Origin: Candidatus Omnitrophota bacterium
GTDB taxonomy: Bacteria > Omnitrophota > Gorgyraeia > 2-01-FULL-45-10
Length of the DNA: 64,000 nucleotides
Assembly (NCBI GenBank): GCA_003142795.1
Contig: PLNN01000019.1
Location: 51,991 to 115,990 of the forward strand
Reading direction: 5' to 3'
The notes below the pieces were generated by a model. It was not told where the DNA came from. It saw only the letters and a list, made by a program, of their open reading frames with translations, and made no database searches. Shown here one piece after another: positions 3,001 through 56,510 of the stretch (position 1 is the first letter of the stretch; each line of letters opens with the position of its first letter). The position numbers and the translations under genes are program-made.

Positions 3001-6000
3001 AGGGGCGGTAAACACGGCATCCTTCCATACCTCCGTTTGTATAGGGCTTTTTACGCGACATTGCCGGATAAATATAAAGATTTTGAGAAGCGGCTTCAAG
3101 ACGGTATCGCACGCGAAAAAGAGCACCAGAAAAGGATGAGCCCGGAATGGGCAAGAGAACAGCTTAAGCTCTTTGTTGCGCAAGGTACTATACAAGGTGT
3201 GCCGGGAAAAGAGATAGAGACACTGTTCGATTATGCCGGAATTTTGCTTGATACAAAGACCGGGAATGAAGATGACTTGCAACTGGTTTATAAAACATTG
3301 AAAATAATTTCCCTGCTTGATATTTCTCCCGAATTAAGGCGTTTGACTGAGCATAAGTTACGCGACTTCGCCAGGAATACGCGCGCCAAAGATTTCGGAT
3401 CGTATAGCGGTGCCTACCAAGAAGGGGCTCTCAACATCTCCGTTAATACACCGTCCAAAGGACCTGCCCCGGTAGAAGCGCTTTCTGCGCTGGGCGCTGG
3501 CGAACAGTCCGCAGCCATCCATACCGGACTGGGAGCGTTTAAAGGCGGGAAAGTGGGGCACGTAATTTTATTGGGAGAGAACGAGCTGGACGAAGAATTA
3601 TTCAGCAGTCAAATGGAAAACATTCTTAAAATAGAGACAGCCTTCGGCTGCAAGGCAAGGGTCTGTATAGTTGCCAGCTTTAGGAATCACAGGGCGGTAA
3701 TTGAGCTATTAAAACAGAGAAAATTTTTTGGCCTTGAATCTGATCAGATTGCAATAGAATTTCAGGGGATCTATCAGAGCATGGGCGTGAGGGGACAAGG
3801 CCCATATTATTATCTGGAGGGCGGAAAGCATCTGGCAGCACCGGGTGACTTAGATGCGATATTGACACCGGTCTTGAGCGGAACGTTTACGGAATGGTCG
3901 AACGCCAGTGTCGAAGATATTATCGTATTGTCTTCGGCAGCTAAAGCTCCTGCAAATCCGGAAGAAGATTTTCTGATCCTTGGCCGGCTTATTGACACAA
4001 AGGCCGATATGGTCGTCTCTGTTACCGATAGGACAAAAGAAGACATAGGCGCTTCTCCGTATTATGACGCAGACAATAAACGTATAGTGCTATTGGAAGA
4101 TTATGCCGTTGGGCAAAATGTCACAAGAAATTTGCAGAGCAGCTTTCGCAACGCGGTTTCATTGTCGTCCCTCTTTAAACATATGGGAGTCGATCCTTTA
4201 CAGGCTCATGGCTTAAACCAGGCAGAATTATCAGATAAAGTCCGTGCTTTTATGCATGGATTGCGAGATAAGCCTTATGTCGTTCGAAAGGCAGTAACGG
4301 AAGAAGCCGGCAAGATAAGGCAATACAAGGTTGACCAGTTCAAGCATCCTTTCGGCAATCTCACTTTTAAACTGAAGACGGAGTATGTATATACGCCATC
4401 TCATAAATTAGCTACCGTATCTTCTGTCAGGCTTCGCAGATTCGGGCTTGGTTCGGTGGCGCAGATTATTTTAGCAGCTCTTCTTGTATCAATAGTAGGG
4501 GGAGCCGTTTGGCGCGACGCGCAGCAGCGGCTTGCTGTCGCGCTGCCGTATGGCATAACGATAGCGATAGTGATAGGCGCAATGATCTCAGCAACAATAT
4601 TGATACGTTGGATCATGAGTAATGGGTTTATATATATAAATGTAGGCGGCCAGCATCCTTCTCTCCTCAAAATAGAAAAAAAGATATGGCGCTCCATTGA
4701 TCGCGAAGACCAGGAAGCATTAAAATCGATAGTGGGCGCTGACGAAGCTGCGATAAAAGAGCTTATAGACCGTCCTGACAGCAGGATAGCGGAGTTTAAG
4801 GAGGATCCTATATCGCTGGAAGGAAAACTCGAAGAAGGTTATTGTGATGGGAGGACTATATATCTTCTGCTGAAGAAACCGATAATAACAGATGGCAAAG
4901 AGATAACCAGGTTAAGATTCCAGGGGGTCAGGCCTAAAATAGGCGAGAACGGAAAGATCGCTAATTATTCTGGTTACAGAGAGCTTGTAGCCGGCGAAGA
5001 TGGCCTTCTCCGTGTCGATGAGCCTCCCGCAGCCCGCCCGGCCGGCGCAAAACTTTATGACGGGGCATCGATAGAGTTTGAGGTCATGGATAATAGGTCG
5101 ATCCCCACCGATGTCGCGGTAGGTCTTGGCAAATACACGGGCATCGATTTCCAGGGGCAAAAGGTGGGCTACATCATAGCGGGAATGGAAGAACCCGATG
5201 GCCGCCTTTATACTAAAAAAGATACGATCGGCAGCATGTCTTGTGAATCGTTCAAAGAGCCGTCGAAAAAATTGACGATACTATTTCGCAAAGACAGTTT
5301 TAGCAAAGAAGAGCAAAGACGGATAGGGCGTACACTTAAAGCTAAGTATGAAGAGGGTGCAGGGGGACTTGAAGAGTCCGGCCTGCCCTTTGTTATATTG
5401 AGGGTAAGTAAAACACGAAACGACAGAATTAAAATAAAGCAAAGATATTCCAGCCACCCGGCTCAAAGATCGTCATTTAGATCTATCAGGGACCTTGACG
5501 ACGAAAGCGATATTTACCGTCAGTTTGGAAGGCTCATACGAAGAGCCCATGATAAAGGGTATTATGACCTGTTCCCAATTGTTATGCATCGTGAATACAC
5601 AGGTCCTACTATTCCCGAAGAGCAGACGCCTTCTTATTATGCGAGGTCGCATGAAACAAAAGTCGGCTTACGGCAGATCCGCGAAAGATGGGAAGTGGTT
5701 TCCAGAAATTTTTCCACGCTTAAACGCCGGGGTAAGCGGAATTCCTCAGAGAAAAACGCGGCGGAGCGGTTTATCGATATAACCAGTGTATTATTTGATC
5801 TTACACAGACCAAGATCACGAATATAGAGACAACTTTCGGTAATGCGCTTTACGGTGATGATGCCCCTACTCACACAAGTGCAACATCCATGGATGTTTC
5901 CCGTCTCATAGAGTCGTTCCTGGAAGGTTATTTTTATGATATCGACCCGCGCGACAGGACTTTCAGCGATATGTATGAAACTTGTATTCAATTCGAGCGC

Positions 6001-9000
6001 GATCCGAATAGATTACTAATGCCTGTCAATAAGCTCTACAACGCGATAGGGGTGGCTTTGTGGGAAGAGGAATCCGAGGAATTTGACAAATATCGCGGTC
6101 TCTTTATGCCAAATCTCATTGCGGCAGAGAAAAATAGCCGGCAGTCAGAAGGCGGCGCAGCCCGGTGGTTCAAGCCGCTGATCATGATGGGCGGGCTCGC
6201 AGCATTATCAGCTTTCGCTATAACGGCATTTGCAATATTGATACCTCATGCATCAGCAATACACACACAAGCCGTCACAGCTGCAATGCCGTGGTGGAGC
6301 GCGATACTCGGTATGTTCTTTTTAGGGTCTATCGGAGATTGGCCTTATGACCCAGGCAGGTCGCGCGGTGAAGACCCACACGCATTTGCCCTGCACCATT
6401 ATAACCAGGGGGTGCGTTTATGCAAGGCAGGACAATTAATAAAAGCCGTAGAGTGTTTTGACAAAGCCATCGAGGCTGTCCCGAATCATTACGCAATGCA
6501 TTATAACAGGGGGACGGCTTTGCTCGAATTAAAGAAATATGATGAGGCTATAAAGGACTTCGAACGAGTACTTGAACTAAACCCCGATTTTTCCATGGCA
6601 TATTATAATCGGGGCGAAGCGTACCTGGCGAAAGAAGAATATAGGGAGGCCATTGCAGATTTTACAAAGGCGATCGAGGCCGGACTTAAAAATGGCATTC
6701 TGTATTTCAATCGGGGCGTGGCCAAGCTGATAATTTATAAAGATGAAAGTGATCTTAGCTATAAAGATGACGGAATTCGCGATTTAGAAACAGCCGCGCA
6801 ATTGGAGCACCTGCTTATAGATAGGATCAGGTCGATAGCGGAAAATTATAACTTGGATATTAAATTACCGCCCCCGTCCTCGGGCCCGAGATTTATGTCG
6901 TTCCTCCTGCCGTTTATCATAGTAGCCTACTTTGCGAGCATGGGAGCCGTTTGGCCTGATATGCATCTGAGTTTTGCCGGCATATTAGCAGCCATGCAGA
7001 GTTGGTTCGCGACGGTCGGCGCCTCCGGCGCGCTACCGTGGATTGTAGGTGTAGCTGCAACAATCGCCGTCTTGATAACCACATTTATCGCATATAAAAA
7101 TAAATCCAAACCGTTAGTGTCTTCGCATCAGCCTTTTTTCTTTGTAAGACTGACCGGGCTGAAATATTTAATCGCTATTCCGCAGATATTATTAATGGCG
7201 TTTGTCCTTGGGTGCACCCCGCCAGATTCCGGGTCACAAAAAAATATTGAGAATAGAGCCGAGGAGGCCCAGATTGCCAAATTCGAAGAGGAAGAGGCGG
7301 AGCATGTTGATGAGATCGCCAAAGATAATAAGGACCTTCAGCAGAGAATAGCCGCTTTCGCCAGTATCGCAATGTCTAAATTCAGCGTCCACGGTTTCAA
7401 ATACGAAACGATTAACGATCGCGAGCGTCTAAAATCGCAGGAAGAAGGGACTAGATATCTCTTAGTTTCTGCGCGCGGTATAGACTCCATGTATCCTGCT
7501 GATGATAAGCGGGTAAAACTTGAAGTTTTGATGAAGAAATTTATAGACACCGCGGACGGGATGGTCAAGAATTCGTTCGGGACCGGCGATGTCCTGAACG
7601 AGTGCGATGCGATAATTAATAGAGCAAATAACCTGTATTTTATCCCCAACGGATATTTACTGGACTTCTTCGGCATAAACAAATTCGGCCAAGTCATTAC
7701 GTTCTCATACAAAATAGTCGATAAACAGCCTTATACGTGCAACGGCTACGATATTGGTGTCTGCTATATAGTCGAATTGACAGACTATTTTTCACAACGC
7801 CGTGCCGCCTACGCAACTAGCGGCAAAAAATTGATTATATTTAAGGATAGTTTAAATAAACCAATGGTCCTTCCCAAAAATGCCGGCGGCAGACATCAGG
7901 ACGCGATTAACAAGGAGCTTGCGAAGCTGCAGGCGCGTGACTCAATAGAGGATGCTGTAGATGCGAGCGCTATACATGAAGTTACGCATAGAGCTAATAA
8001 AGGATTTAAGGTGGGTTCAGGCTGGCTTGCGGGAAGCATGAGTCATGAAGATGAGGAAAAATCTGCCAGATTTTCCGCCTATTTTAATGGCAATGGTCAG
8101 GCGGTCGACATTGCTTATTCTCTGAGAAATATTGCTTACAATGCAACGCTGGACCAGGATGATCCAGATGGCGAATGTGCATTTATAGATGCGTTGGTGG
8201 TTCAGGGTATCCGGAAAGGATTATTTGATAAATCAGATTTTACATATGATACCCGAATTGGGCTGAATGGCTTGATGAATAGCCTCAGAAAAGAGACTAC
8301 CAAGATTGATGAAATGAATAAGGCCATTTTGTCGGTCGCTAAAGCATTTAATAAAGGATTTGATGCTGATGAAAAGGGATTTCGCGCCAAATTGAAAGCC
8401 CTTGTTCCCGAAGCGGCAAAACCATTGTTACCATCTTCTTATGTAATACCTGAAATCAAGCGTAAAGCCAGGCCTGCACCGGTAGAGCCGGCTCCTGTAA
8501 AAACTACGGAAGAGAAACCGTCCGCTGAATCTGCGGAACCGTCTAAAGAACAACCCGAGGCTAAAGCTCCTGTGAAACAGGCAGGGCCTGAGTCTGTAGT
8601 ACCTATTGTTAAGCCGGCAGCTCCGAAACCGGTATCGTTCCTCGTGCCTGTTGCCGATGATGCAACGGGTCAATTAAGGGTCGTCTTTAATATTGTGAAT
8701 AAGGCAAAGCAAGCTAATCCCGCCCTTGCCAACAATGGGAAGATCGAGACTCAGTATGGCGCCGGCAAATGGCTGACAAAGGTAAAATTGTCGGACGGCA
8801 AAGCAGCCTGGATATATATAGAACAGAAAGGCGACGGTAAAGCAGCGATTTTCACCGGTAAAAAACCAAAGTGGGTAGAGATCTATTTGATCGGCAAAGA
8901 CAAAAACGGTCTTTGCCTTTTCGACCCGGACGCCAAACAATGTACAGTTATCTCAGCGCGAGGGGATCTTATCGAAACAACCGTGGGTGAGGGGGAGACG

Positions 9001-12000
9001 ATAGAAGATGCGGTCAAAGAGGCACTTCACATGATACATAACCACAACACGCCATTCTACTGGCCTGCGCTCGCCATCGCGCCACAAACAACATTGCCGG
9101 ATCTCGGGTCGGCCGCGATACACAGCTACAATGAATTTAATACCGTCCTGCAGGTCTCCTATCGCTCCTACGGTATTACCATGCCCGCGGAATGGGACCG
9201 CATTATGCCGGCACTCTACGATACAATTTCGAGTCATACGGGATTCCTGTCTTTGAATAATCGTGAGCAGGTCACCATGATCAGGGAGCTGTACGATTTC
9301 CTTCAGCGGAAGCGGTACGAAAAGGCATCCATCAAACTTATGAGCCGCGACCATACCGTGCTCGCGTTCTTCGGCCGATCATCCGGTAAAGAAGGGGATA
9401 TTTTCGAAACCAGGTACGCAAACGTAGTGGATGTATACGGGGGCCATCTCGAATTATTCAAACCCGGCGAAAAAGGCATGACGCCTATGGAGGCGAAGGA
9501 AAAGTTTCTGGATCGTGCAGCGGAGCTGGCGGCAGCCGGAAAATTCGTAACGCTTATGGTGTGGTCTCATGGAGCGAAGACCGGGTTCGAGGTGAGCGGT
9601 ATGATGGGTATCTCCGACGCCGAGATGGCCGGCGCATTATCCGGTTCCCGCATTAAACTTAGTAGAAAGACGATCGACCTGACGAGGGTCAATGGTATTT
9701 TTAACTGTTGTTATGCGACGGATTTTACACTCAATATGCTTTCCGAACTCAAGCGCCAGACGGATGAAATGGGTAGTGCGCTCGTTTTCCCGGGTTCGAT
9801 CGTCGCAAGTACGTCACGCAATAGAGAAGCGCTCAGCACCGCCTTATGGGACAGTATAGGCGAATACCACGTCAGGACTAAGGGTAAAGACTCAAATAAC
9901 CCCTCATTGCCGCTTGGCGCAATCCTGACCTTTGTCGATGCCAATCTTTATACCCAAGGCCGCAAGCCAGAATTTGATGAAAACAATAAAATAAAAGGAT
10001 GGACCGTGCTTAAGCCTGAAATACTGCAGGATCCAGCCGTAATTATTCCGCTTAATGACAAAGACCGTGAGGAGCTACGCCGTATACTTCGGCTGAAGGA
10101 TTCCATGCCGGCGCCTAACTTTATCCAGATCGGGCTTGCTGAGCCCGCGCGCAATTTAAAACAAGAGGTCATCGACAGCGTTCCCGGTCTTGTTTCTGCG
10201 GCTGTGGCCGGATATAAAAGCCAAGGTGGGGCGTGGTTTCCCGGAACATTCTACCGGAAATTCATCGCGCCGCTCGAGACGCCGGTCTCGTTCGGGCTGG
10301 CATTTGCAGTAGCCCAGGCATTCGCGATGCGGATGGGGTGGCATGACATGGCACGGCCGCTTTGGCTTATGACCGCGCTTGTTCCTATAATTTTCTGGGC
10401 AGGACATATTCCCCGCTCGATTTACGACTATTATAAAGGAAATAAGATCACTGCACTTAAAGCAGATGTAAATATTCTTACAATTGCCGCTGCCGCAGGT
10501 ACTGCAGCCTGGCTTGGGGCAACAATGACCTTCCCCGCACTGAACAATATAGCTCCGTTACTGCTTTATTTCGGCATAATATTTCCGCTCACAATTCTGC
10601 ATATATATATCAATTGGAAAGACAACGTGGCCGGACATGACAAGAGGCCGTTTGCACAATTTACTTTAGGTACGCTTCTTACAGTTATGTTATATACCGC
10701 TTTCTTCTTCAGCGGTTATACAACATTCAGCCGATACTTTATTACGAATCCGAACGCTCCTATTCTTGAACAGCTTGAAGTGATCGAGCGAAGGGCTGCG
10801 ATACATAATAAGGTGAAAGGCCGTACCTCTGAACCGGTCTTTGGCATAGAGCCGATCGACGAGTCTATCATGCGGGCAAGTTTATATGAGCGCCTTGCCA
10901 GGGAAGATGCCGAAAATCGAAAAGAAGCCGTTGCAGGACTCCCATGGTATCAATCGCATGAAGACCTTGCCCGGGATGTTATCTATGTTACTCTGGAAGA
11001 CGGGTCGAAAATGGTTTACCTGGGAATAAAAGCAAATGGCATTAACCCGGATCCAAAACGTCCCGAAATGCCGATCAAGTGCATCCGTTTTCATGAAACG
11101 TACCAGAGCGTCATCGACCGCTACAAACCACTCCTGGCCCAGCCTGACGCCGGGACGCGTCTCGAGGCAGTGATAGCGCTCGGCATGCTTAAGGACCCTT
11201 CGCTCGTATCCGATTTTATGAGTGTTATAGAAAAAGATACGGATAGCCGCGTGCGGGGAAAGGCAATTGCCTCATTAGGATACATGGGGTATGGCGCCAA
11301 GCCGGCGATCGAACAGATCGTCCATATTTTTAAAAATAGCAAGGAAGACAGATTTGTCCGCATGATCGCAGCGGATGCTTTAAGCGGTATTGTCAAAAAT
11401 CTTCCGGATTCAAATGAGGACAAGACCGCAGTAATAAATATCCTTATTGACGTCATAAAAGATACGCTCTACGGCAGATTACAGGGCGATGATAAACAAA
11501 TCGGTAATGCAGCAAGTTTTGCGCTTATTAAAATAAAAGATCCGTCCACGGTCCATAAGATCATAGATGACATTCGTAAGGAAAAATCCGAACATGATAA
11601 AATTCAGCAGCCAAAAGATGAGCCGAGCAGCCGCAGTGAGCTCGGGTCCGACGCGTACATGAACTTTGCCGCCATATTCGGTACGCTCTTGTTAGGGACT
11701 ATCGGTAAATGGCCGTTTGCCTGGTTTACCTCGGACGGCGCAGGCTTATCGCAGAAAGCCAACAAATACTTTGAAGAAGCTATGAGGTGCTGCGAACACG
11801 GCAAATATGAAGAGAGCCTAGAGCCTTTTAACAGAACCATTGAACTGGCCCCGTATTATTATGCGGCATATAGAAACTTAGGAAATGCATATTTTATGTT
11901 GGATCGGTATGACGAGGCTATAGATAACTACAAAAAAGCGATCGAACGAAAACCCGATGATAATAATTCATATTTTAACATGGCTCAAGCATATGCCTTC

Positions 12001-15000
12001 AAAGATGAATATTCTGAAGCCGTCAAATGCATTACAAAGGCGATAGAATATCATACCGATGAAGATGAGCCTGAATATGGCGACCTATATTATAAGCGGG
12101 GCATCCTTAATTTTTACGCGGGTAATATAGAAGATGCCGAGCATGATTTGGAAATGGCCGTAAAATTAAAACCCGCACTCATATCCTCCGTCATATCATT
12201 CGTGCATGAGCATAAAGATAAATTAGATGTTAAGTTACCGCCCGCATCCCCGCCACCGGGCCAAGGCCCGAGATTTATGTCGCTCTTCCTGCCTTTTATT
12301 ATTAGTATAGGCATTTTCGCAAGTTTTGGAGCCGTCTGGCGCGACGCGCATCTGAGTTTCGGCAGCATATTAGAAGCTATACAAAGCTGGCTCGCGACGA
12401 TGGACACACCGGCTGTGCTGGGGTGGGCCGGCAGCATCTCAACCGGGCTTGCGCTGATGACAGCGATAATTGCTGCGCCGGAAGAAAGATTTAATTTAAG
12501 CGAACTCATCTCTTCTTATAAAAAAGATGTAAAGATAAGGGGGTATACCGCGTCTGAAAAATACAGCGCTATAATAGCAAGACTTATAAAGGCAGCGGCT
12601 ACAGAAGAGATAATCGAAGCGCTGGATGATATCTTTGTTTCCGGGGTGGTAAAATTCCATATGGGTTTTTATACTACCGCCGGCATCCTGGAATCGAGGA
12701 TGAATCTCGTAACAAGAGTGCTTGCCGATGAATTAAAAATACGCATTGCCGGCAGCAGCGCCGTGCAGTCGCAAGAATTCGCCGCTTTATATAAAAAGAT
12801 AAAAGATATAAGAGATGCCGAAAAAGATGCCAGGCTAGGCTTCGCGCGCTACGCGCTCAAAGTAGAAGGCAAGGGAAGCGGTGTGCGTAAGCGAAATGTG
12901 CCTGAAACACACAGGAGGTTTGACGAGTACGAAAAATTCCTTCATATAAGTTCGCTGGTCGAAGATATAAAAAACCGCAGGGACCTTTTAATCGCGAAAG
13001 GTGTTCTCGGAAAAGACGAAGCGATGAACATGCTCGACATAGGTTGCGGCGAAGGCGTATTTCTTGAACAATTGAGCGAAAAACTTACGGAAGCAGGTAT
13101 AAAGGCGAATCTGACCGGAACGGCCCTGAGAAGGAGTGAGGGATGGGCTGAAATAGAGGCAGCGCATAGCAATATTAAATTCATGGAGGGGATGGCTGAG
13201 GCGATGGATATTGGAATGGGGACTATCCACTATGCCGTAAGCGTCTATATGCTCCATTATTCGGAAGATAAGCTTAAGGTGATAGAAGAAGTATACCGCG
13301 TTCTTAGTCCTTACGGCATAGCGAGGATACATAGCAACGAGGAATCTACTCAAAAAGGCACTCCGCGATGGGAGGTTCTATTCGGCCGGATGGATCTGGC
13401 CGGCAGTTATAAGCTCCGTGTCGAGGACGCATATGAGTATAAAGGTACGGACAAGGACTATGAGGGGCCGGCCCTTGTGATCGAAAAAGACGATCCCCGG
13501 GAAATGCCTTGCGATCTATTATTCCCATATACACTCGACTCAGAGGGATTTTATCATCCTATAAGAATAGCACAGGTTAGACGCGCTGTTCCATGGCTGA
13601 AGACGGTCGCGATGATCCTTTTGGCCCCCCTTGCTCTGTTAGTGTTAGAAGGGGCCGGCTGGCGCGACGCGCACATGAACCTTGGCGGGATATTAGAATA
13701 CATGCAGAGCTGGTTAGTGACGATAACCACCGCGCCCGGCGCGCTGCCTGGGCTAACAACAATTTTTACGATGGCAGGCTTTGCGTTTGGTTCATTTATA
13801 ATAAGCAAAAGAGACATATCATTATTTTTTAACAAATCATCCAAGAAACAAAAAAACCAGCTGCTGAACGGCAAGATCCAAAAGGTATGGCCGGGCAAGC
13901 TCTCTGGCGATAAGATCAATAAAGCGCTCGATAGCGCGATTGGACACCTTCCTGATAATCTGCAAGAAATAGTGATACTTAAATATTACGGCGATGGCGA
14001 TAGCGGGCCCTTAACAGACTACGATATCGCAGATCGCTACAAGGTAACCGTTGCAGCGATAAGGGATTCCCTTAGGCGGGCGCATAAAAGGATAAAAACG
14101 GATCTTTTGGAGCAGAATGCGGTAAAGGATATTCTGCCGTCATATCTCGATCCCAAAAAATTGCTGGAAAAACGCTTTTTTGCAAGATCGCATACAGACC
14201 GCGGCGGATTTGCGTTGCTTGATATAGCGGCAATAATTCCGCTTGCGGGCCTTATCGTGGCACTATCGGGATCATTTATTATTGGCATGGCGCTCGGCAG
14301 CCCGTCTGTATTTCTGCGCGATTACATCCATTTCGCCTCCGGCGCGTTTACCCTCCGAAGCCCCGAATGGTTAATGAATATCGGCGTAGGAGGGCTGCCG
14401 TGGCTTAAATACATTGCAGCCTCTATTTCTTTATCCGGATTTCTGATGGCCAGGTCCCGCAAACGTGATTTACGGCAAGCCCAGTCAATGCAAGCGTCGA
14501 AACCCCAGCCGGTCAGGCCGAGAGAGCGGAAATACCTGCGCCTATTGAGCGATTTCGAAAAGAAGCGCGCCCGGGTTATGAAGTTGGCGGAAGCCCAGCC
14601 TCCGGCGCCTTGCCGCATCGTATTCGACGATAAGAATATCGGTAAAGATAAAATAACGTCTATAGAGGAAACAGTACGCGCGCAATTGCCCCGTCTTCAG
14701 GAGATGGCGAGAACCGGATACGACATCTCTTTCGGAGCGTCCAGCCAGGATATATTACGCACCATATATATAGAAAGAAGCCAGCGGCCGGAAGGAGAGA
14801 TAGAGCTGACTCGTGACCGCGCGTTCCTCGCGCTCCATCTGCCTGTTGAAAACCCTGACATAGCCGCTAGGGCGATGAATGATCTGATGGAAAAAATGGG
14901 TAAATATCTCAAAACCCCGAATGTGGGAGTTACAACTATCGTTCCCGTTGTTCATAGCGACAGTGCCAGCTTTGGAAACATAGATTATCTCATAACCAAA

Positions 15001-18000
15001 TCGTTGCGTGACGCAAAGAATGAGGGCAGGCGCGCCGAGATCATCGTCGAATGCGGTGTAATACAGCCATACTCGTGCTACGAATCGGATCTCGAAGAGT
15101 TTAAAACAACGGATGCGTATAAAAGGATGAATAAGAAGCCAAAAAATCTTTCCAACATTTTATTTGATCCGGGCTTCAAAGACGCCCGCGCCGCGTTCTT
15201 AAATTATGTTCATGATGAAGAGCTCGATATGCAGGACGAAACAAGCAGAATGATATACAGCGGTTTTGATTCGAATATTAAATATATATATCCCAGAGAA
15301 TCTTTCTCAGCCCCGCTTTATATGCGTCTTTTCAAGGCGCAAGCCGTGCCTATCCATGAAGATATATGGGACGATACAACATTATTGTTCCTTAGGCTTG
15401 ATTATAATTCATTCGACCGCCTGAAGCCCAAGATCCCGGTTACCTTTAATGAGCTTACGCGGTTCGAAGATAGTTACCTTCAAACCCAGCTTGACTTCAT
15501 AAAAATAGCTCATATCCGGGACGCCCGCCTGGAAAGGCAGCTTGCCGCATTGCCTCTCGATCCGGATGTCAAGGACCGCCTCTTCATTCTCGGCGGAAAA
15601 CATGCGCGCGGGATCAAGAGATATTCTCCCGTTGCGTCATTATTCCAATTTCAGGATGAATCGGCGCATTGGCGGCAATTGAAAGATGTATATCCATTCA
15701 TGCATGCGCGAGCTACGGCAGAGAGCGTTCTAAGCGACGCGATACACGATTGGATCGACGAGAAATTTCCGGATGGAATTCACGACCCGACACCAGGATC
15801 GGATGAAATGCAATCGTTTATTGCCATGAATATTCCAGACGATGACAACTGGCGCCACATGATAGATATAGATTTCATCGAGTTCCTCCTTGGTTTATCT
15901 AAGGAACGTGCGGATAAGCGGCCGCTTACCGAGAAAAATCAAGTTCGCGTATATGGTATCCTCAAAACTATCGTGGGTGACATGGGCAGTGGAGATCTGA
16001 AAAAATGGCTTATAGATTATTGCAATACCGCGCCGGGATCTCAAAGTGCCGCAACAGACCTGATCAATCAGCGGCTGCGTGAACGGCTGTCATCGGATGA
16101 ACGCGCATTCTTGTTAGGCGATCCGGATTCGCGCATAACCGGCGTAGCATGGATGGGGAAGAAGAATTTCGATAGTCGCAGTATTTATAGCGCAAGTAAC
16201 CCCGTAAGAAAATCCACCGCAATGGTCGGCGGAGTAATTTTACGATCGGACCTTGGAGGGGAAAGCCATCCCGGAAAAGGAAGCGTTCCGGATGAGGACA
16301 GGTTAAGCGAAAGCGTTCTCGAAAACTGGATGAGTGTTATAAAGGATGGAAACAAATTAGGAGAAAAAGCAATACCCGTGGTGCTAAAGGGCGGCGCGGC
16401 ATCCGGAGATGAGAAGAGAGATTTTTATACATGCCTGCACTTCCTTACATTCAATGTGTATGTAGTACCGGCAGAGGAATTAAACGGCCGTAGTTTCTGG
16501 TACAGCGATGCTACAAACAGTGTCTATATAGCAGACCGCGCCTTTACGCAAGCAGAGCTGGCAAAGATAATTGGAGAATTGCAATACATTCAGGATCGTA
16601 TAAATGCCGGCAGGTCCGATGACATAGAGAATAGGGCATTCAATTGGACGTGGACCAATGCCGAACCGCCGCAACTCGAAAAACCCGTTTCGAGCGAAGG
16701 ACAAAATGATACGGCTAATAAAGCTATCGGCGAATCGGATGACAACAAACAGATCAATTCTGGCGGGGAACAGAACAATGGACGAAGGGCCAGAAGGGAA
16801 AAGAAGGTCGAAACGCCCGCCCAGAAGGCGGCAAGTTTTATACCCCCTATCAAGTCGGCGGTGAGTAGGGCGCTCGCCGGAAGCATCCTTCCGAATATGA
16901 CCGCTTTGATAGATCCGAAACTGAGGACCGCTCCGACTATTTTGTTTGACGCGTCTTCTTATAAGAACCCCGTATTAAGTATTATTGGTATAGTCGGCAG
17001 TCCAAAACTTATCCCGATAATCCCCGACCCACGCGTATTGAAGACCCTGGATAATAGCAGTCGGTATACAGCTCAATTTTCTATGGATGAGATCAATTTT
17101 CGTTTAAAGGAACGCCATCCGGAGACGGCCCTGTTAAATGACGAATGGACCGATCTGGCAGTTACCCAGATACAGGCATACCCTTCACAAAAGAAAAGAG
17201 AGTGGTTAACCCGGCAATTTTCCGTGCTCAGGGCCATTGTGGAAAGATCGACAGGCGCTTTTGCAAATGATATGGCCAAATATCCGGCCGAAACTAAGAT
17301 CGTGCGGGACGCCGCAAATAAACTCGAGATGTCGTATAGGACGGTCACGAAAAAGATATTTGAGCTGCAAAGGAAGCTTAAGGCAAAGAGCAATGACGGC
17401 TGGATAACATCCGCAGACGTTGCAGAAAACATGGATTCGCTGAAAGAAGTAATGGCGGCATGGCCTCGCGGCATCTTTGTTTTAGAAAAAAATAAATCGC
17501 TTCTTTCTGGCGATATGAGAAGAATGGACGATTGGATATTGGAGTTGCAGAATACGCTGCTGCCGTCCCTGAAAAATTATGACATCTTCAACCTGCTTTC
17601 CGATAAAGCTGTGGCGCAAATGCCGGCCGGTATATTAAATGAAGTCTATTATGACGCATTTCGGTCGGTGTGGCTCGAGGAACTGCGCGATATCGGGTCG
17701 AGCATTGCGGAATCGGGCGATGAAGAGCTTGATGGCTATGCGTGGGAATGCTGCAGGCTGGCTTCATACGTATTCGCGCTCGAATGGGAATCTGTATTTA
17801 CCGACTTAACCGCCGAAAAGGCGGTGCCTGCAGGGAAAAGCAGTTTCGTTTCAAATACGCCGATAGGCGGGGCGGGTATTTTATTATTAGACGGTGAGAT
17901 GCAGCCGCGCGAATTTATTCCCGGCGCCGGCACGATGGATGCCGGCGACCTTGCATTGAGGCACCATCCGTTCATGTTAAAAGAGCAGTACAGGCCGGGC

Positions 18001-21000
18001 GATCGCATAGTGATAGTCTGCCCTTCTACCACGGGTTTTCCCAATTTCGAACAGATCCACTCATATTTGGAAGACATGTTCGTCCTGCGCAGGATGCTTC
18101 CGGATTCTCCGCAGGTATACCTTGGAGTTGCGACTATTTCGGGAGAGATGCGCCTGTATGGGATGGCCGGGTCGCGCGAAGGCGGTGATCATTGGGCAGA
18201 GCTTATCAATAGTCTCTATGACGAGCTTCCAAAATACCGTAAACTTAAAAAGACATTAAAGGATTCCTTCGCTTTACATGCCGATAGAAAAATATACGAT
18301 AGATATATAGGCGATGATACTGAAAAGGATAAGAAAAAGAGGCCATCATTGCGGATAGGCAATAGCAGTACAGTTATCTCAAAAGAAATGGAGGATATCC
18401 TCGCAAAGAAAGATGAGGGGGAGATAGAAAAGATAGAGAATAATCCTATCTACATGATCATGAAAGATGTAGTGGAACAATTGCCTTTGAACATAAGAAA
18501 GTCTCTTATCGAAGGTTACGGCCGCGAAGAGGCGGACAGGATAATGAATGCGGTCATGAACAGGTTCGAAAAACAATTCAGGGACCTAAAGGCATTTTCA
18601 AAGACCATCTATTCGGTAAACGATCTCGATAAGTTTTTCTGGGAGATATCATCCAAAGTTTCAAGGGTTAACATGTTCATAGCCGAGTGCCGTGGTTCTG
18701 ATCTCCTCGATGAATACATAACTCGAAAAGGGTTTCTGGAGGTCGTAGAGATAGGCGGCCTTACCGTATCTACGAACCCTTCTCCAATACAGGGCCTGGC
18801 TCCTCCCCCTACACAAGGCGAGACTGCCCGCCAGAGCGTCCTGTCCAGGGTTATGCGCAGTCATGCGCAGTCTTTTGCGCCGGACAAGGTCCTTCGCGCG
18901 GGCAAATCTATCATCGATCAGCTCAGGAACGATGCCAGACAATCGCTTGACGGTAAATTGCTTCCGAATTCTGTCAGTATCCGTCCAGAGGTGATGAATA
19001 TGGGCGAAACGCTCATAGAAACAGACAATCTTTCCGTGGACAGACCGCTCTTTAATCTATGCTTCATGCATGATTTTCTTGGCATTTCCACTCAGCCGAA
19101 TTTTGTAGTAATCCCGGACCCAAAGAGCATAGCCCCTTATTTACAGCGATATAAGACCGTTTTGGACAAATATGAATTGACTACGAGGCTCGAAAAGGCC
19201 AACCCGGCCGCTAAGAAATTATACAATATATACCGCGATGAAAAGCCGGCGCCGGATGTTGATCCGGAACTATTGTGGAAATGGACGAGAGACCTCTGCA
19301 TCAACGCTAAAGAGGTGTTGGAAGAGCGTTACGGGAACATTTATAACATTGAACACGATATCGAAGCGCTTAAGGATAAAAACCCGAAAATTGCAGGCGA
19401 GATAGAAGATGCCAAAAACACGGTTGTGGGCCTTGTTAAAAAAGAATTTAAAGTAAGCCGTATGGCTATAGAGGCCTTTGATAGATTATGTAGATTTAAA
19501 AAAGACGATAAAATTCCCGCCTCCGAAGTAAAAAGAGAGATCGAGCAGCTTATAGCTTACCTTGATACATGGCCAAGATTGCAGTTTGGATTGAGAGATA
19601 CCCTTAACGATCTTTCTCAAGGTGAGGATTATGTTGAGTTCGAAATATTGGAAAATATAATATCCGAATTCGGGAAGGCCCTGAGCCAGCACAGGTTCCA
19701 GATCTTTGCAGAGCATTCTTTGCATAGTGAAGCCATGGAGCTGATCTATTATGACGCCTTAAGGCTTGCACTGTTGAAATTATGCACGGACCCCTCAGAA
19801 GGGATATTGCCGCGCATATCGGCATGGGCCGATCATAAACAAAATATCCCGGTTTCGATGAGAACGGACGTCTATCGCTTGTTTGATGAGACTATGGGCC
19901 TTGTGCAATATGAAGTGATCACCGATGCCATAAAAGAAAAAGTGCTTGTAGGAAAATCAGATGATAGATCGAGGGCGCATCCGCCCATAGGAGGCTTGGG
20001 CGTATTATTTCTTAGAGGGGCCGGCGAGGATAACGGTCAATTGCAGGTCCGGCGATATTTGCCCGGCGCTTACCTGTCCAGTCCGGGTAAAACGCAGTAT
20101 AACCCGCAATATGTAAAACGCTGGTATCAGAAAGGCGATAGCATTATTCTGATGTACCCTTCATACAGCGAATATCTCAATGCGGAAAGTATCAGGAATT
20201 TTGCGGAAGACTGTCTGAATCTCCGTAAAGATGTGCCCGGATTATCGGAAATACTGGTCGGCATTATGCAGCCAAACGGCGCTGTGGCGGTCTACCGCCC
20301 GAGGGCGCAGCTGGATGACGCTGCTGCATTGTATCAGTTGACGTTTAAGACCGCTGAGATCTTGAGCCCTTACCTATCGCAGTTCAGGGTTTATGTGGAA
20401 GATGAAACCTTTATATGGTTTTCCAGGGCTTTCACAGAATTTCAGAGCCGCAGCAAAAACATGCCTTTTAATAGCGGGGATGGGAATAGGCTTTTAAAGT
20501 TGAACCCCGATAGGTCGGTATTATTCAATATGTTCCGCCAAAAAGCAAATGACCGCCTGAGAAGCCTGGGAGCTATACTTGTCAAAGGCCTCGAGAGGTG
20601 CGGGTATGATCATAAAACCGCTGTTTCTATGGTAGAGCGGGTAAAAACACGCCTTAACGGTGAATTCAGAAAGATTAAAACGTTCGATGTCGCTATCGAT
20701 GATGGCCAGAGCGTCTTTTTAAATGATAAAGGCTTAAGAGAAGAGATGGAGACCATTGTCTATAAAGCTATAATGGCTGTCGGCGAAGAGATGGCGAGTT
20801 ATTTGATCGAGGACCAGGAATTATTCGAGCCGATCAAGATCCGCGGGCTGACAGATACAGATGAGGCCGCCAGAAAAAGAGAAGCCGCGAAAGCGCAAAG
20901 GCTGAAGAGAGAAGAATTGCGCAGAAAAATTGCAGCTATTCGCAAGACAAATTTTACCGATCCACAGGCTGTCCGTCAAGCATTTGAAGACAGCAAAATG

Positions 21001-24000
21001 CTTTTTGATAATGTTGCCGCGGCCGGAGAGATCAAAGGGGCCCTTGCTGAGCATCTTCATACGGTAATCGGCCACACGTTGGCCGAGAAATTCGTTAGAA
21101 GAACGCTCGATGATTCACAAAATATGTGGGAGGCGTTCCTAGGCGGCGAGGCTGTTGAAGCGGATGCCTTCTTCAATCTCGGCGAACGGCAGGCATTGGC
21201 AGAATTGGTGATGAACGCTGAATCAGGCAGTGAGGTGAATGGATTTAAAGCCGGGATCGATACAGCTCGCCAGCAATTTCCCATAATGGATTCCATCAAT
21301 GGCTGGGCGGAACTTGCCTATTATGTTTTGGAACAGGATGAGATCGGCCGGGACGATATAAACACTGCCGTAGAAATGATCAAGCCTATCGAAGAAAGCA
21401 TTAAAGGGCTTTCCGGCGAGGATTCACAGCGCGCGGAGGATCGTTTCAGGCAAATTCTGAATAGTTTTAAAGATAGACTAACCCCCGGCATTCTCTCCGA
21501 GCTGGAAGAGATGTTTCCTGACGGTAACGGCGCGGAGGATATTGAATGGGAGAGGCTTATAAGGTTATTACCTGGTTTAGAACTTGCGTGCCGTGTGTTC
21601 AGTGAGGCCGGCTTATATTCATCACAGGCTGAGCGGGATAAATTTGAAAAAGGAAAACTTAAAGTCCAAGCAGCCGTGGAGGAGCAGGGAGTGTATTATG
21701 AAATAGCCAGGCTGAATAACGAAGAAAAGGATACTGGGAAAACCTCTAAAGAAAAATCAGCGAAAGTCTTAAGGCTTAATATAGGCAATTCGCTGGTTTT
21801 TTACAACCGGTATAGCGGCAGGCCAATAAAGATAACGCTTAACAGGATTGAAAAAGGGCGGCTATACTTTGACGTTGATACCCCATTCGGACTTGTAGCT
21901 ATAGGGGGCGCTGAGCTGTCAAGAACGGCTTTTAATCATAATGGTGAATGGCGCAGTACTTCTATTAGAGAGCGCGCCGCAGACCATTGGAAAGCGGTAG
22001 ACGGAAGGCTGCGCTTTATCACTCTGTGCGGCATCGACCTGTTTTCAAGAGAGCGGGATTATGGTGTCGAGAACCGTCTCTGGGTTTTTCCGTATAAAGT
22101 GTTATATGGCTTGATAGAAGACGACACTATAATCGTCGAATCTGCCGATACAAAAAAGGACAATAAAAGAGATGAAGATAAAGTAGAATTTAAAAATGTC
22201 GATGCCGGTATATGCCTGCGGATAGATCGTGTATTACCTGACGGGACCGCTAACGTTGCTCTGGAAGACCCGCTTAACCAGTGCGACTACAATAAGGTCG
22301 AAGTTATTGAGCCGGCCGGGCAAAAGCCCGTGGCTAATTCCGCCGTCAATTGGCTGAATCTCGGCCTGGCGTTACTCGGTTTTGTGCCGCTTATCATAAG
22401 TCAATTCTTCGGGTTCGACCTGTATAATTTTATCCAGACCGCTGCGGTTATCAGTTCTATCTATGTTACCTCGTTCCTAATACATGAACTGAACCATTAC
22501 CTTGACCTATATGGCTACTCATGGAAGAACCTGAAGAGTTTCGTGACGGACCGACCAGCGCTTGAAGTGAATGCCGAAGGTATAAGCGTCTCCGGAGCGA
22601 GAGGAACTCCCGGGGTCCTGGTAAGTGCGGCATTAGGATACGTCTCATATCTTTTCATATCGCTGATCCCGCAATACGCGATTCCCGCCTTGATCATAAA
22701 CATAGCACTCATCTCTAAATCAGACCTCACGAATATAATGAAAAGTGATGTTTTTAAAGAACTGATCATTAAGATACGTGGCAGCGAATTTTATAATGCA
22801 CTGTATGAATTCATGTTAGAGATTTACAGTTTCGTCGCAGAAATTTTTAGCGTCTTTAATGATATTTTTCAAACTTTGGTATCTATTATAAAAGATCTTC
22901 TTGCCTCATTTGAAATATTGTTCGAAATATCATTCAAATCTGCCGAAGAGATGGAGCGAGAAAGAGAGCAAAGGAAAGACGAGGCGAGGCAGTTATTGCA
23001 TTTCTTATCCGACAACAGATATTCTCTCGGCCAGTTTAGCGCACAGCAGGTAGTTCGCAGGGTCCTCGATAAAGGTAAAACATTAAGGTCGTTCATATTA
23101 CCGGACGGCGTTTCGAGAGGAGTATCATTGAATGCTGTCATTAATGCATATATAAAAATAGACGGAAACCAAGAGACTGCGCTCAGTCTGAGCCAGAAGA
23201 ACGCCGTCAGCGATAATATGTTTGTCCGGCAGGAAGCGGTAGATTCGCTCTATAATTTCCTTCCATATGCTACGGACCTGGAAACATTCGAGGATATCTG
23301 CGATACGCCGGTAAAGACAGTAGAAGGTGGAGCTTCAACAGCAATAAACCTGTTCCTTAAGAATGCGGCCAGCCCGTTGGAGGCCCACCAGGATCTTACC
23401 AACACTATTATAGCTAAAATAATCTTTGGCAATTGTTCTGATCTACTGATCAAAAAGTTGGTGAAATGTCTGGGCTCAGCCGATAAAGATGAACGTCATA
23501 ATGCCGCGAACCTCTTGATATTGCTGACGAAGAGAGATGATGCCGACATAGTGAGCGCCATTGTCGGCGAGATCCCGAATATAAGAAAAGAATATTTTGT
23601 CTATAACGATGCGGAGATCGCGTATGGCGCGTATAGCCTGCTGGCGGGACTTGCAAGAGAGACAGAAAATGAGGCGATACTCACGGCTATAATAATAGAA
23701 ACACGGCATATAATCAGATATCTGAGCCTGGATGATGAAGCTATATGCGACAGGGTCAGATCAGCGGTCTATCAATTATTGTTAACAGGCAGAAAAAAAA
23801 TAATGGATGCCGTTGCCAGAGAGATCCCGGCCAGGATCATAGGATATATGAAAAATATCGAAGCCCCGCATGCCTGTTATGCCGCTCACGAACTTATGAA
23901 CCTTTTCATAACCAGCGGTTATCCTGTTATAGATGTCGCCATAGAAAAAAATCGCGCGGATATAAGAAAGATACTGATAATAAACAAAGAACTGAACGCG

Positions 24001-52500: not shown

Positions 52501-53529
52501 ATGAAGACACTCAGATCTGGCATCATTGGATGCGGCACCATCTTTCCGATGCACGCCCAATCGATCAAGAATATAAAAGAAGCACGGCTTGTCGCCGTAT
52601 GCGACATTAAAAAAGACCGCGCAAGGGATAAAGCTAAAAAGTATGCCTGCGCCGGTTATACCGATTACAAAAAGATGTTCGCCGAAACACATCTCGACGT
52701 AGTCCATATCTGCACTCCTCATTACCTTCACATGCCGATGATCATCGAAGCGGCCAAACGGAAAATAAACGTAATAAGCGAAAAGCCGATGGCCCTCAAC
52801 CCGGAACAGGCCAAAAAAGAGATCGCGGCAGCAAAAAAGAATAAAATTACTTTTGGTGTAATATTCCAGAACAGGTTCAATCCCGGCTCGCAGCTTGTAA
52901 AAAGCAGGATAGACGACAAAAGTCTTGGTAAATTAAAAGCCGCGAAACTCGTTCTCACATATCATAAACCGGACAGTTATTATAAGAAGAGCGACTGGAA
53001 GGGCAGGCTCAACAAAGAGGGCGGCGGCGTAGTAATTGACCAGGCCATTCATTACCTGGATATAGTCCGATGGCTTATCCCAAGCCCCATCGGCTATGTC
53101 GAAGCGAAATGCTCGAACCGCATGCACACATTTACGGATGTCGAAGACTCAGCCGAGGGCATAGTTAAATTCAAGAACGGATTTTACCTGTGTTTCTACC
53201 TGATCAATTGTTATTCATTCGATGACGATCCTTTTATCGACATCGATTGCGAAAAGGCAAGGGTTCACATAGTCAAAGACTCGGCTTACATAGGATACAA
53301 GAACGGCAGGAACGAGAAGGCTGAGCCCGGAGCGGATGAATATATAGATTATGGCGACGGAGTAAGGGATTACTGGGGTTATTGCCACTTTAACGAGATA
53401 CGCGAGTTCTATCGCTCATTGGCTGCAGGTAAGAAGCCCGCCGTAACCGCGGAAGACGCTAAAAAGACACAGGACCTCATATGGGCTATATATGAATCGT
53501 CCAAACGCGGCAAAAAAATATATCTATAA
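52501..53529 (+). CDS. Gfo/Idh/MocA family NAD(P)-dependent oxidoreductase
   Basis: N-terminal Rossmann motif GIIGCGTIFPMHAQ, the EKP motif (ISEKPMAL), and a C-terminal alpha/beta dimerisation region typical of the family. Confidence 0.85.
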   Translation: MKTLRSGIIGCGTIFPMHAQSIKNIKEARLVAVCDIKKDRARDKAKKYACAGYTDYKKMFAETHLDVVHICTPHYLHMPMIIEAAKRKINVISEKPMALNPEQAKKEIAAAKKNKITFGVIFQNRFNPGSQLVKSRIDDKSLGKLKAAKLVLTYHKPDSYYKKSDWKGRLNKEGGGVVIDQAIHYLDIVRWLIPSPIGYVEAKCSNRMHTFTDVEDSAEGIVKFKNGFYLCFYLINCYSFDDDPFIDIDCEKARVHIVKDSAYIGYKNGRNEKAEPGADEYIDYGDGVRDYWGYCHFNEIREFYRSLAAGKKPAVTAEDAKKTQDLIWAIYESSKRGKKIYL

Positions 53530-53538
53530 AATAAGATT

Positions 53539-53580
53539 TTGATTTTTTAGTATGATTTTAGTATAATAATCATACTTTTT
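53539..53580 (+). promoter_or_regulatory. Near-consensus sigma-70 promoter (TTGATT-17-TATAAT) overlapping an inverted repeat and T-tract (agtatgatt/aatcatact, then tttt)
   Basis: The -35 TTGATT is at 53539-53544 and the -10 TATAAT at 53562-53567, with an exact 17-bp spacer. The -10 sits in the loop of a 9-bp AT-rich inverted repeat (53549-53576) followed by TTTT. This could act as a promoter for 53619, a weak terminator for 52501, or both. Confidence 0.45.
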
Positions 53581-53618
53581 GTTAGATTAGAACCAAAATT
53601 TTAGAAAGGGAAACAGCA

Positions 53619-55468: not shown

Positions 55469-55499
55469 GATATAGGGACCGGTAGCCAGAGGATAACGG

Positions 55500-56411: not shown

Positions 56412-56423
56412 TAAGCCCCTTCA

Positions 56424-56452: not shown

Positions 56453-56510
56453 TTCCATCTATTTATATAAAATATAACTGATAAACAATACACACAAAGA
56501 GAGGAAAATA

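Follow-up and report, generated by a model that had tools for sequence, protein, structure and literature searches.

The giant host gene and its neighbours

The window, i.e., the whole stretch of 64,000 nucleotides analysed here, lies on a contig with three giant genes in tandem, ORF1, ORF2, and ORF3. ORF1 encodes a giant polytopic membrane protein that hosts a methyltransferase domain (Table 1). Its Pfam matches, all in the same frame, include CofD (aa 443-616), HEAT_2 (aa 3659-3743), and the methyltransferase (aa 4283-4394), together with TPR matches at aa ~2086-2175 and ~3903-3977. Kyte-Doolittle hydropathy identified eleven hydrophobic transmembrane (TM) modules separated by soluble segments. 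The N-terminus has four TM helices, and no signal peptide is visible in the sequence or in the hydropathy profile. ORF1 thus fits the giant multi-enzyme type: it combines many distinct Pfam domains, none of them dominant, with several TM helices, and it shows no signal peptide. In phmmer searches against the PDB, the N-terminal half of the protein gave only TPR matches and the C-terminal half gave none.

ORF2 has an ARMT1-like domain, and ORF3 has PGM/PMM, transaldolase, and cupin domains. The window also encodes a GH130 protein, whose 90%-identity cluster has named members that are all Candidatus Omnitrophota MAGs.

We rejected misassembly and chance as explanations for the long reading frame of ORF1. 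It runs for 27.8 kb without any of the three stop codons, and its Pfam domains share that frame. The ordinary genes of the contig are recorded in NCBI, ENA, and Logan, on contigs as long as 162,510 bp, and ORF2-ORF3 were seen again on an independent Logan assembly.

Table 1. Position of ORF1 and of the features in and around its methyltransferase domain (nucleotide coordinates of the window).
Feature	Start..end	Strand	ORF1 residues	Description
ORF1	157..27915	+		One uninterrupted reading frame, 9,252 aa
Cassette copy 2	11665..12474	+	3837-4106	Weak TM, TPR, and 'WRDAH' TM hairpin; repeat of aa 2047-2312
TM hairpin C	12277..12474	+	4041-4106	TM1, loop WRDAHLSFGSILEAIQSW, TM2; Kyte-Doolittle peaks 2.09 and 1.65
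Helical lead-in (N-terminal part of the soluble segment)	12475..12921	+	4107-4255	Last ~70 aa common to P0002
Methyltransferase module as modelled	12922..13584	+	4256-4476	N-terminal cap helices, seven-strand core, family-specific C-terminal beta extension
Pfam methyltransferase core	13003..13338	+	4283-4394	Pfam matches; the domain of the first-pass annotation
Motif I, LDIGCGEG	13033..13056	+	4293-4300	Glycine-rich SAM loop
Ala4323 codon	13123..13125	+	4323	End of strand beta-2 (model residues 62-68, ANLTGTA)
LLFPY	13516..13530	+	4454-4458	Strand conserved in the family-specific C-terminal extension
TM hairpin D	13597..13809	+	4481-4551	Repeat copy of hairpin C

A complete class I methyltransferase-fold module

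The first-pass annotation of this DNA proposed a Rossmann-fold SAM methyltransferase with the motif I MLDIGCGEGVF. Both the motif and the fold were recovered. The codons at nt 13030-13056 read MLDIGCGEG (aa 4292-4300), which places D/E-x-G-x-G-x-G after beta-1. The three Pfam families put forward as a check all scored above their cut-offs in scans of ORF1 and of a 333-aa excerpt: Methyltransf_25 (PF13649, 38.3-40.5 bits, cut-off 27), Methyltransf_11 (PF08241, 35.8-39.7 bits, cut-off 21.2), and Methyltransf_31 (PF13847, 34.3-38.7 bits, cut-off 27). So did Ubie_methyltran (24.7-29.7 bits, cut-off 20.1). All these matches fall on the same core, and they are not due to chance because the E-values reach 4.5e-10. 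By the Pfam gathering thresholds, the domain belongs to the class I superfamily. The AF2 model of the module (pLDDT 88.5) has a seven-stranded Rossmann-like alpha/beta fold with the canonical strand order; a single-sequence AlphaFold2 model of the 370-aa soluble segment had a pLDDT of 38.1 and was discarded. This stretch of ORF1 is therefore a real and complete class I SAM-methyltransferase-fold module of about 220-290 residues.

The curated NCBIfam cut-offs led us to reject more specific assignments, i.e., UbiE/MenG (MenG_MenH_UbiE, 24.7 against a cut-off of 158.35), BioC (27.6 against 184.95), and the arsenite methyltransferase ArsM (20.5 against 263). NodS was rejected on curated cut-offs as well, and the Pfam matches of ORF1 did not include PF02353 (CMAS). 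Generic class I methyltransferases (Methyltransf_11/25/31; PDB 3dh0, 3l8d, Coq5 4obw, OxaG 5w7k) are 14-25% identical to the module. They are soluble enzymes of ~25 kDa, whereas the ORF1 domain sits in a membrane giant. RebM, AtmM, SDMT-like (2o57), and cyclopropane-synthase-like proteins were among the best profile-to-PDB matches (52-49 bits), by a trivial margin over the others. The structural neighbours of the module include SpnF, a cyclase with the methyltransferase fold but no methylating activity.

Relatives in large Omnitrophota proteins and in DPANN archaea

An exhaustive HMMER search found that P0001 (3070 aa, 44% identity), P0002 (3007 aa), and P0003 (2775 aa, Omnitrophota) contain the module together with its C-terminal extension. 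The alignment of P0002 begins at query residue 157, i.e., aa 4186 of ORF1. In these three proteins the module often adjoins TM segments, and the hairpins beside the module in the relatives are unrelated to those of ORF1. The large relatives with a named host (P0003, P0019, and P0028) are from Omnitrophota. Stand-alone methyltransferases of DPANN archaea (MCD6414170.1 and MBR9707728.1 of Ca. Diapherotrites, MBI2445998.1 of Ca. Micrarchaeota) are 26-32% identical to the module over most of its length and have the same signature columns and C-terminal extension. Unlike ORF1, they are free proteins of ~190-260 aa without TM hairpins. Their gene neighbourhoods are truly archaeal, with Nop, fibrillarin, Cdc6, and Sec61beta in one and L35Ae-MT-Trm1 in another; the latter arrangement surrounds the free gene in two Micrarchaeota-type contigs.

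The alignment of the ORF1 module with its relatives revealed common signature columns: motif I is kept, the end of beta-2 is non-acidic, beta-4 has a His in place of the usual Asp, and the C-terminal beta extension ends in LLFPY. This last motif is invariant in four large-protein members and recognisable in the stand-alone ones. On sequence grounds, these proteins group with the ORF1 module in a small distinctive subfamily of large Omnitrophota proteins and stand-alone DPANN archaeal genes.

In the metagenome scan, L018 was the one real relative. The family-profile scan of genome contigs gave, beyond generic cores, one Omnitrophota locus and one Iainarchaeum locus, and a scan of the same kind with aa 4030-4800 of ORF1 gave no relatives. 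Word-index homology searches returned no match to the 370-aa soluble segment at E <= 1e-3 or to aa 4107-9106 (5000 aa) at E <= 1e-5; these negatives are weak, since the index missed P0001-P0004 even with their own sequences in the query alignment. No full-length relative of ORF1 was detected in the word-index and genome-contig searches. Support in the neighbour-joining tree of the family is poor (0.35 for the family split, 0.53 for the clade of four giants), and we therefore make no claim on the direction of transfer.

Neither the subfamily nor its DPANN relatives are described in Nielsen & Lui 2026 or West-Roberts 2023, where the term 'DPANN' occurs 0 times. We tentatively raise the possibility, in which we place rather low confidence, that this is an undescribed class I subfamily, marked by an intact motif I, no beta-2 acid, the beta-4 His, and an LLFPY-type extension. 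Among ~1.8 billion representative proteins, it would occur essentially only as beads of Omnitrophota giant proteins and as free DPANN genes (Diapherotrites, Micrarchaeota).

Atypical residues at the cofactor site

In canonical class I methyltransferases, the ribose hydroxyls of SAM are typically, though not universally, bound by an Asp or Glu that ends beta-2, and an Asp (or Asn) after beta-3 ('GD') contacts the adenine N6. The appropriately spaced acidic residue expected in the first-pass annotation is absent from ORF1: beta-2 ends in Ala4323 and the GD position is Met4346. Together with the beta-4 His and the extra C-terminal beta extension, this separates the module from generic class I methyltransferases. 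Both changes are common to the closest relatives. The end of beta-2 is G/A/S/T/N in the 20 closest family members and never D/E, whereas generic methyltransferases mostly have D/E, and the GD column varies within the family (H/N/F/E/S/M/D). In contrast to this loss of both acids, the D, G, G, and G of motif I are kept in nearly all family members, as in generic methyltransferases.

These replacements raise the possibility of a pseudo-enzyme, in which the methyltransferase fold was kept, productive SAM binding was lost, and the module serves as a structural or ligand-binding bead. The non-methylating SpnF among the structural neighbours fits this idea. So does the degenerate motif I of L018 ('DIVCGFG'); because a Val replaces its first glycine, some members of the subfamily may be non-catalytic. 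Yet motif I is conserved family-wide, as are the Tyr/His of the cap helix and many core positions, and stand-alone homologues are retained in tiny DPANN genomes, where an inactive enzyme would have less chance of being kept. Moreover, two of the best profile matches have solved structures without the beta-2 acid, RebM (3bus), an active enzyme, and 2o57, annotated only as a putative methyltransferase. After a conserved Gly, their strands end in 'GISIS' and 'NIAP', respectively, and that of ORF1 in 'GTAL'. The motif G-x-[ST]-x-S...Q would characterise the group of RebM, AtmM, SDMT-like, and cyclopropane-synthase-like proteins; its Ser and its downstream Gln are missing from ORF1. We regard the loss of function as unlikely for the ORF1 module, and SAM binding and catalysis as plausible.

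Membrane hairpins and topology

The domain lies between TM modules of ORF1 and between copies C and D of a hairpin repeat, as first annotated and as hydropathy and blastp confirmed. The two hydrophobic hairpins that bound it, with the hairpin motif at aa 4061 (C) and aa 4502 (D), are 48% identical in protein sequence (blastp, E 2e-8). Hairpin C is part of a larger repeated cassette, of which copy 2 is 35-41% identical to aa 2047-2312 (nt 6295-7092; E 2e-35 to 6e-39 in a chunked blastp self-comparison).

Since the chain leaves a two-helix hairpin on the side of the membrane from which it entered, the hairpins would hold the module at the membrane surface. Hydropathy and the positive-inside rule were the sole basis for the topology. 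Lys and Arg are commoner in the hairpin flanks (27 of 150 residues) than in the loops (6 of 108 residues), and this positive-inside bias points to flanks in the cytoplasm. An N-terminus with four TM helices but no signal peptide also fits this orientation. SAM is a cytoplasmic cofactor, and the module is most likely on the cytoplasmic side because SAM is available there.

The alternative is a periplasmic or cell-surface module whose substrates or ligands are external or come from prey. Helix counting is ambiguous: a lone helix (aa 2332-2356) bears a lipobox, and another, near aa 3836, is weak; strict counting through both could place the region from the TPR to the methyltransferase outside. 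Most domains of Omnitrophota giant proteins were indeed predicted to be extracellular, but the same authors call TM predictions on such proteins, and their own localisations based on them, unreliable (West-Roberts et al. 2023, bioRxiv 10.1101/2023.11.21.568195). In addition, giants with TM helices only were read as having cytoplasmic domains (Nielsen & Lui, bioRxiv 10.64898/2026.06.07.730766). Given the cytoplasmic cofactor and the charge bias, an external module is improbable.

The suggestion that a relatively recent insertion of the methyltransferase into a duplicated TM/TPR cassette split C from D found no positive support and is very improbable. The same hairpin does flank the domain on both sides, and the module behaves as a shuffled unit found in quite different protein contexts. 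However, C and D are each a whole hairpin unit and not half of a broken cassette, and the motif, with its four occurrences in ORF1, serves as a general linker. Nor does anything look recent, since the GC (0.462) and GC3 (0.470) of the segment are typical of ORF1 (within one SD of its windows, 0.472 +/- 0.021 and 0.501 +/- 0.037) and the DNA identity between the hairpin copies is only 54%. No scars or direct DNA repeats were noticed in the course of these general comparisons, and the word-index and genome-contig searches found neither an ORF1 ortholog without the methyltransferase domain nor a same-order orthologue in distant Omnitrophota.

A probable methyltransferase bead of an Omnitrophota giant

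The reading we prefer, and consider probable, is that of a membrane-tethered, cytoplasm-facing SAM-dependent methyltransferase bead of an Omnitrophota giant protein. ORF1 would be a 'multi-enzyme, inner-membrane-anchored' giant, a chain of TM hairpins with bead-like soluble modules between them, both enzymes and scaffolds (CofD-like, TPR, HEAT, methyltransferase, and others). The module would most likely bind SAM through its intact glycine loop and then methylate a substrate. The two missing SAM-contact residues (beta-2 Asp/Glu to Ala4323, GD Asp to Met4346) count against this reading.

The host genome belongs to Candidatus Omnitrophota, the phylum of the published Omnitrophota giants, and ORF1 resembles these proteins in its many unrelated Pfam domains per polypeptide, its HEAT/TPR scaffolding, and its many TM helices. 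The neighbouring giants have PGM/PMM sugar-metabolism domains like those of 'module 2' in published Omnitrophota giants. Unlike the published proteins, ORF1 is below 10,000 aa, the operational length cut-off of the Nielsen & Lui catalogue; this threshold is arbitrary, and ORF1 falls just short of it. Nor does ORF1 correspond to the archaeovorin or dockerin-type giant proteins (West-Roberts 2023), as no SecA-DEAD helicase, dockerin, or C39/S8 peptidase domain was found among the best 25 families listed for each of Pfam and NCBIfam. In the catalogue, 779 of the 916 giants have a Pfam match, 94% of the 916 have TM helices or a signal peptide, and PF08241 occurs in 137 Omnitrophota giant proteins (Nielsen & Lui 2026, bioRxiv 10.64898/2026.06.07.730766). 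A SAM-methyltransferase-like fold was also predicted from structure in another Omnitrophota giant (10.64898/2026.06.07.730766; 10.1101/2023.11.21.568195). The initial remark that such a domain is unusual in a membrane megaprotein thus holds across bacteria generally, but not in Omnitrophota.

The architecture of ORF1 is already known to be common in this phylum, and its methyltransferase is a new example, one more such bead in giant membrane proteins known to be rich in these domains. Beads of this kind are not generic methyltransferases, but a recognisable subfamily with non-canonical cofactor-site residues. The module as modelled is a confidently predicted, well-delimited piece that could be expressed alone to probe the activity of an enzyme domain from otherwise untractable giants. 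The DPANN homologues, if upheld, would provide small, tractable proxies for biochemistry. The L35Ae-MT-Trm1 arrangement, if the subfamily is real, would be a hint of an activity towards RNA or ribosomes that was recruited to the membrane in Omnitrophota. If upheld, the finding that the nearest free-standing relatives are in DPANN archaea would be relevant to the movement of genes between bacteria and archaea of nano size. Such a distribution would suggest that genes were exchanged between two ultra-small groups whose members live attached to hosts, one group being known for its attacks on archaea.

Fold of the module and genomic setting

ORF1, the giant gene hosting the methyltransferase, is a single uninterrupted ORF; two further giant ORFs (ORF2 and ORF3) and then ordinary genes follow, all on the same strand (see table). 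The first-pass annotation had placed a motif I in ORF1, and M-L-D-I-G-C-G-E-G is indeed read there. Four Pfam families match the domain above their cut-offs (lowest E-value 4.5e-10), so the observation stands. The specific enzymes BioC, UbiE/MenG and ArsM were rejected, their NCBIfam equivalog scores being far under the cut-offs.

The fold was confirmed by structure prediction. From the single sequence AlphaFold2 gave no usable model (pLDDT 38.1). With an alignment of 83 sequences, built from relatives, the 221-residue module was modelled with a pLDDT of 88.5 and a pTM of 0.87: two helices lie at the N-terminus, the following elements keep the class I methyltransferase order beta1-alphaA-beta2..., and additional strands lie at the C-terminus. 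The best 50 Foldseek matches in the PDB were all SAM methyltransferases or the methyltransferase-fold cyclase SpnF (best E 4e-11), at identities of just 10-25%, and no particular enzyme stands out.

Features of ORF1 and its surroundings (all on the + strand)
Feature	ORF1 aa	Window nt	Details
ORF1		157-27915	9,252 aa
TM modules (hydropathy)	39-155; 1428-1489; 2007-2060; 2244-2356; ~3370-3520; 4037-4106; 4477-4550; 4682-4760; 7395-7520; 8006-8122; 8485-8562
CofD-like domain	443-616	1483-2004
Loop motif W-[RP]-D-[AM]-[HQ]	1452; 2266; 4061; 4502	4510; 6952; 12337; 13660
TM+TPR+hairpin cassette	2047-2312; 3837-4106		35-41% identity (chunked self-BLAST)
Apparent lipoprotein signal peptide	2328-2353	7138-7215
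Hairpin C	4041-4106
Hairpin repeat	4058-4106; 4499-4550		48% identity; further copy 8519-8551 (chunked self-BLAST)
Soluble segment	4107-4476		370 aa
Module	4256-4476	12922-13584
Pfam matches	4283-4394		Methyltransf_25, 38.3-40.5 bits (cut-off 27); Methyltransf_11, 35.8-39.7 (21.2); Methyltransf_31, 34.3-38.7 (27); Ubie_methyltran, 24.7-29.7 (20.1)
First-pass methyltransferase	4285-4394	13009-13340
Motif I		13030-13056
Hairpin D	4481-4551
Helix-turn-helix	4586-4648	13912-14100
C-terminal region	5001-9252	15157-27912	4,252 aa
Internal duplication (~250 aa)	5752-6001; 6455-6713		27-33% identity, E 1e-15 to 7e-17
ORF2, ORF3		28147-50177	3,231 and 4,058 aa
Mannan/mannoside-use cluster		52501-63157	two GFO/IDH/MocA oxidoreductases, xylose-isomerase-like TIM barrel, two ABC permeases, GH130 mannoside phosphorylase, MFS sugar transporter, PGM/PMM, GH113 with F5/8 type C domain

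The first-pass annotation considered a methyltransferase in a polytopic megaprotein unusual. In this phylum it is to be expected, because ORF1-3 fit the published Omnitrophota giants. West-Roberts et al. (bioRxiv 10.1101/2023.11.21.568195) described these as having many TM regions and HEAT/TPR content, and for one of them structure prediction gave a SAM-methyltransferase-like fold. In the work of Nielsen and Lui (bioRxiv 10.64898/2026.06.07.730766), PF08241 methyltransferase domains occur in 137 and PGM/PMM domains in 64-88 Omnitrophota long proteins, and 94% of 916 long proteins have TM helices or a signal peptide; these authors defined a class of "multi-enzyme metabolic cluster" giants, and read TM-only giants as cytoplasm-facing. 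The domain content of ORF1, ORF2 and ORF3 agrees with their picture, the sole mismatch being that ORF1 lies slightly below their 10-kAA cut-off.

ORF1 has CofD-like, TPR, HEAT and methyltransferase domains. All three giants carry embedded central-metabolism enzyme domains: in ORF2 these include an ARMT1-like damage-control phosphatase domain, in ORF3 PGM/PMM domains I-II, a transaldolase and weak cupin/MPI matches. ORF2 and ORF3 are present also on an independent Logan assembly. The C-terminal region of ORF1, with its internal duplication and three TM modules, had no Pfam or NCBIfam family among the matches listed and no match to PDB sequences. A functional link of the giant genes to the downstream mannan/mannoside cluster is possible. 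In NCBI, ENA and Logan, a contig of 162,510 bp carries the window's ordinary genes. The 90%-identity cluster that includes the GH130 protein has 231 members, and every named member among those listed is a Candidatus Omnitrophota/Omnitrophica bacterium.

Relatives of the module

ORF1 as a whole appears sequence-unique, since word-index searches with the 370-aa segment and with a 5000-aa stretch, and a first genome-contig scan, returned no match; most Omnitrophota giants are likewise sequence-unique (Nielsen and Lui). HMMER, run exhaustively over 1.84 billion representatives, gave 58 matches, the best of which span both the core and the C-terminal extension: P0001 (3070 aa, 44% identity to ORF1, E 1e-29), P0002 (3007 aa, 34%, 1e-25), P0003 (2775 aa, 34%, 6e-19) and P0006 (862 aa, 33%, 6e-10). 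Ranked next are stand-alone proteins of ~190-340 aa (P0004, P0005, P0008, P0010, P0011, P0013, P0014 and others). Where members are named, the split is clean: the large proteins (P0003; P0019, 3866 aa; P0028, 4305 aa) are from Omnitrophota, the stand-alone ones from DPANN archaea (Ca. Diapherotrites for P0005/P0203, P0013 and P0039; Ca. Micrarchaeota for P0008). The nearest free-standing relatives are at the DPANN loci L006, L007, L008, L021 and L022.

The neighbourhoods of the stand-alone genes are truly archaeal, with Nop, fibrillarin, ArgRS, Cdc6 and Sec61beta around P0203, and S3Ae, L35Ae and Trm1 around P0008. The order L35Ae-methyltransferase-Trm1 is kept in two divergent contigs, in the second of which (P0014) the stop of the methyltransferase gene and the start of Trm1 overlap. 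The module of the large relatives likewise lies next to TM segments, but unrelated ones. A GTDB scan with a four-sequence profile found, beyond generic cores, only the Omnitrophota locus and one Iainarchaeum locus. A metagenome scan added L018 (contig Ga0172375_10006384, ~9900-10420; 41% identity), in an ORF of >1100 aa that begins with a signal-anchor-like N-terminus. In a neighbour-joining tree the four large-protein modules group together beside the stand-alone proteins, with weak support (0.53 and 0.35).

Cofactor site

Canonical class I enzymes have a ribose-binding Asp or Glu at the end of beta-2. The first-pass annotation reported an appropriately spaced acidic residue, which is missing: in the model, beta-2 (A-N-L-T-G-T-A) ends in Ala4323. 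Met4346 occupies the "GD" position that follows beta-3, and the beta-4 "FD" is replaced by "IH" (His4358). We aligned 183 domain matches to the family HMM. At the end of beta-2 the ~20 closest relatives carry G/A/S/T/N, never D/E, and in beta-4 they almost always have the His; more distant generic methyltransferases have D/E and a beta-4 Asp. The motif I D-G-G-G is retained throughout. The lack of the acid is a trait of the family and not decay of the ORF1 copy alone.

Nor is the missing acid proof of inactivity, since RebM ("GISIS") and 2o57 ("NIAP"), among the best PDB matches of the family profile, also lack it; RebM is an active enzyme, and 2o57 is annotated as putative only. Some copies of the module may be degenerate, as possibly in L018, whose motif I (V-L-D-I-V-C-G-F-G) has Val for the first glycine.

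Membrane hairpins

Hairpins C and D, which share a loop motif, are genuine repeat copies on either side of the soluble segment that contains the module; that they are repeats flanking the domain is as first proposed. The further proposal that the methyltransferase may have been inserted into a duplicated cassette finds no support: each of C and D is a complete copy of a recurrent linker, not one half of a divided cassette, at the DNA level they are 54% identical, the GC and GC3 of the segment (0.462 and 0.470) are <1 SD from those of ORF1 windows, and nothing points to a recent insertion. The recurrent hairpin, whose loop reads W-[RP]-D-[AM]-[HQ]...ILxxxQSW, serves as an inter-module linker; the W-[RP]-D-[AM]-[HQ] part was not found in ORF2-4 nor in any relative examined. 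Its four copies suggest that a membrane "staple" has spread within the gene.

Plain helix counting gives an ambiguous topology, and TM predictions on giant proteins of this kind are unreliable (West-Roberts et al.). Lys and Arg make up 27 of 150 residues in the hairpin flanks versus 6 of 108 in the loops, which by the positive-inside rule would place the flanking soluble segments, methyltransferase included, in the cytoplasm. This predicted placement fits the SAM requirement.

A sigma-70 region-4/ECF-like helix-turn-helix (LQEIVILKYYG...YDIADRYKVTVAAIRDSLRRAHKRIK) directly follows hairpin D, at 18.5 bits with NCBIfam TIGR02937, under the 42.9 cut-off; a motif of DNA-binding type is odd in a segment tethered between TM hairpins. 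Directly after another hairpin lies an apparently complete lipoprotein signal peptide (VRLTGLKYLIAIPQILLMAFVLGC followed by TPPDSG). Its n-region is basic, its core hydrophobic and its lipobox V-L-G-C, and it is the sole such site in ORF1-4. In P0001 the module is combined with an HPr domain and a weak signal-peptidase-II (Peptidase_A8) match, and signal-peptidase-II content is listed for a 147-kAA giant (Nielsen and Lui). Internal processing of giants by Lgt/Lsp into lipid-anchored pieces is conceivable.

Proposed role

The observation of a methyltransferase in ORF1 is confirmed, and its first-pass interpretation supported in part. The module is most likely a membrane-tethered, cytoplasm-facing, SAM-dependent methyltransferase station of a multi-enzyme giant protein, which the hairpins on both sides would pin to the membrane surface. 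It is probably enzymatically active, given its conserved glycine loop and cap-helix Tyr/His, the homologues kept in minimal DPANN genomes, and the precedent for acid-less beta-2 ends. None of the hints settles the substrate: the structural neighbours are chiefly small-molecule and lipid-headgroup methyltransferases, the gene order in archaea might suggest RNA or the ribosome, and the surrounding locus deals with sugar phosphates and mannan (GH130, GH113, PGM, transporters).

That the Omnitrophota/DPANN distribution reflects a true exchange, between bacteria and archaea, of a methyltransferase family not yet described seems rather unlikely. The domain type is already known; only the subfamily itself and this distribution may be new.
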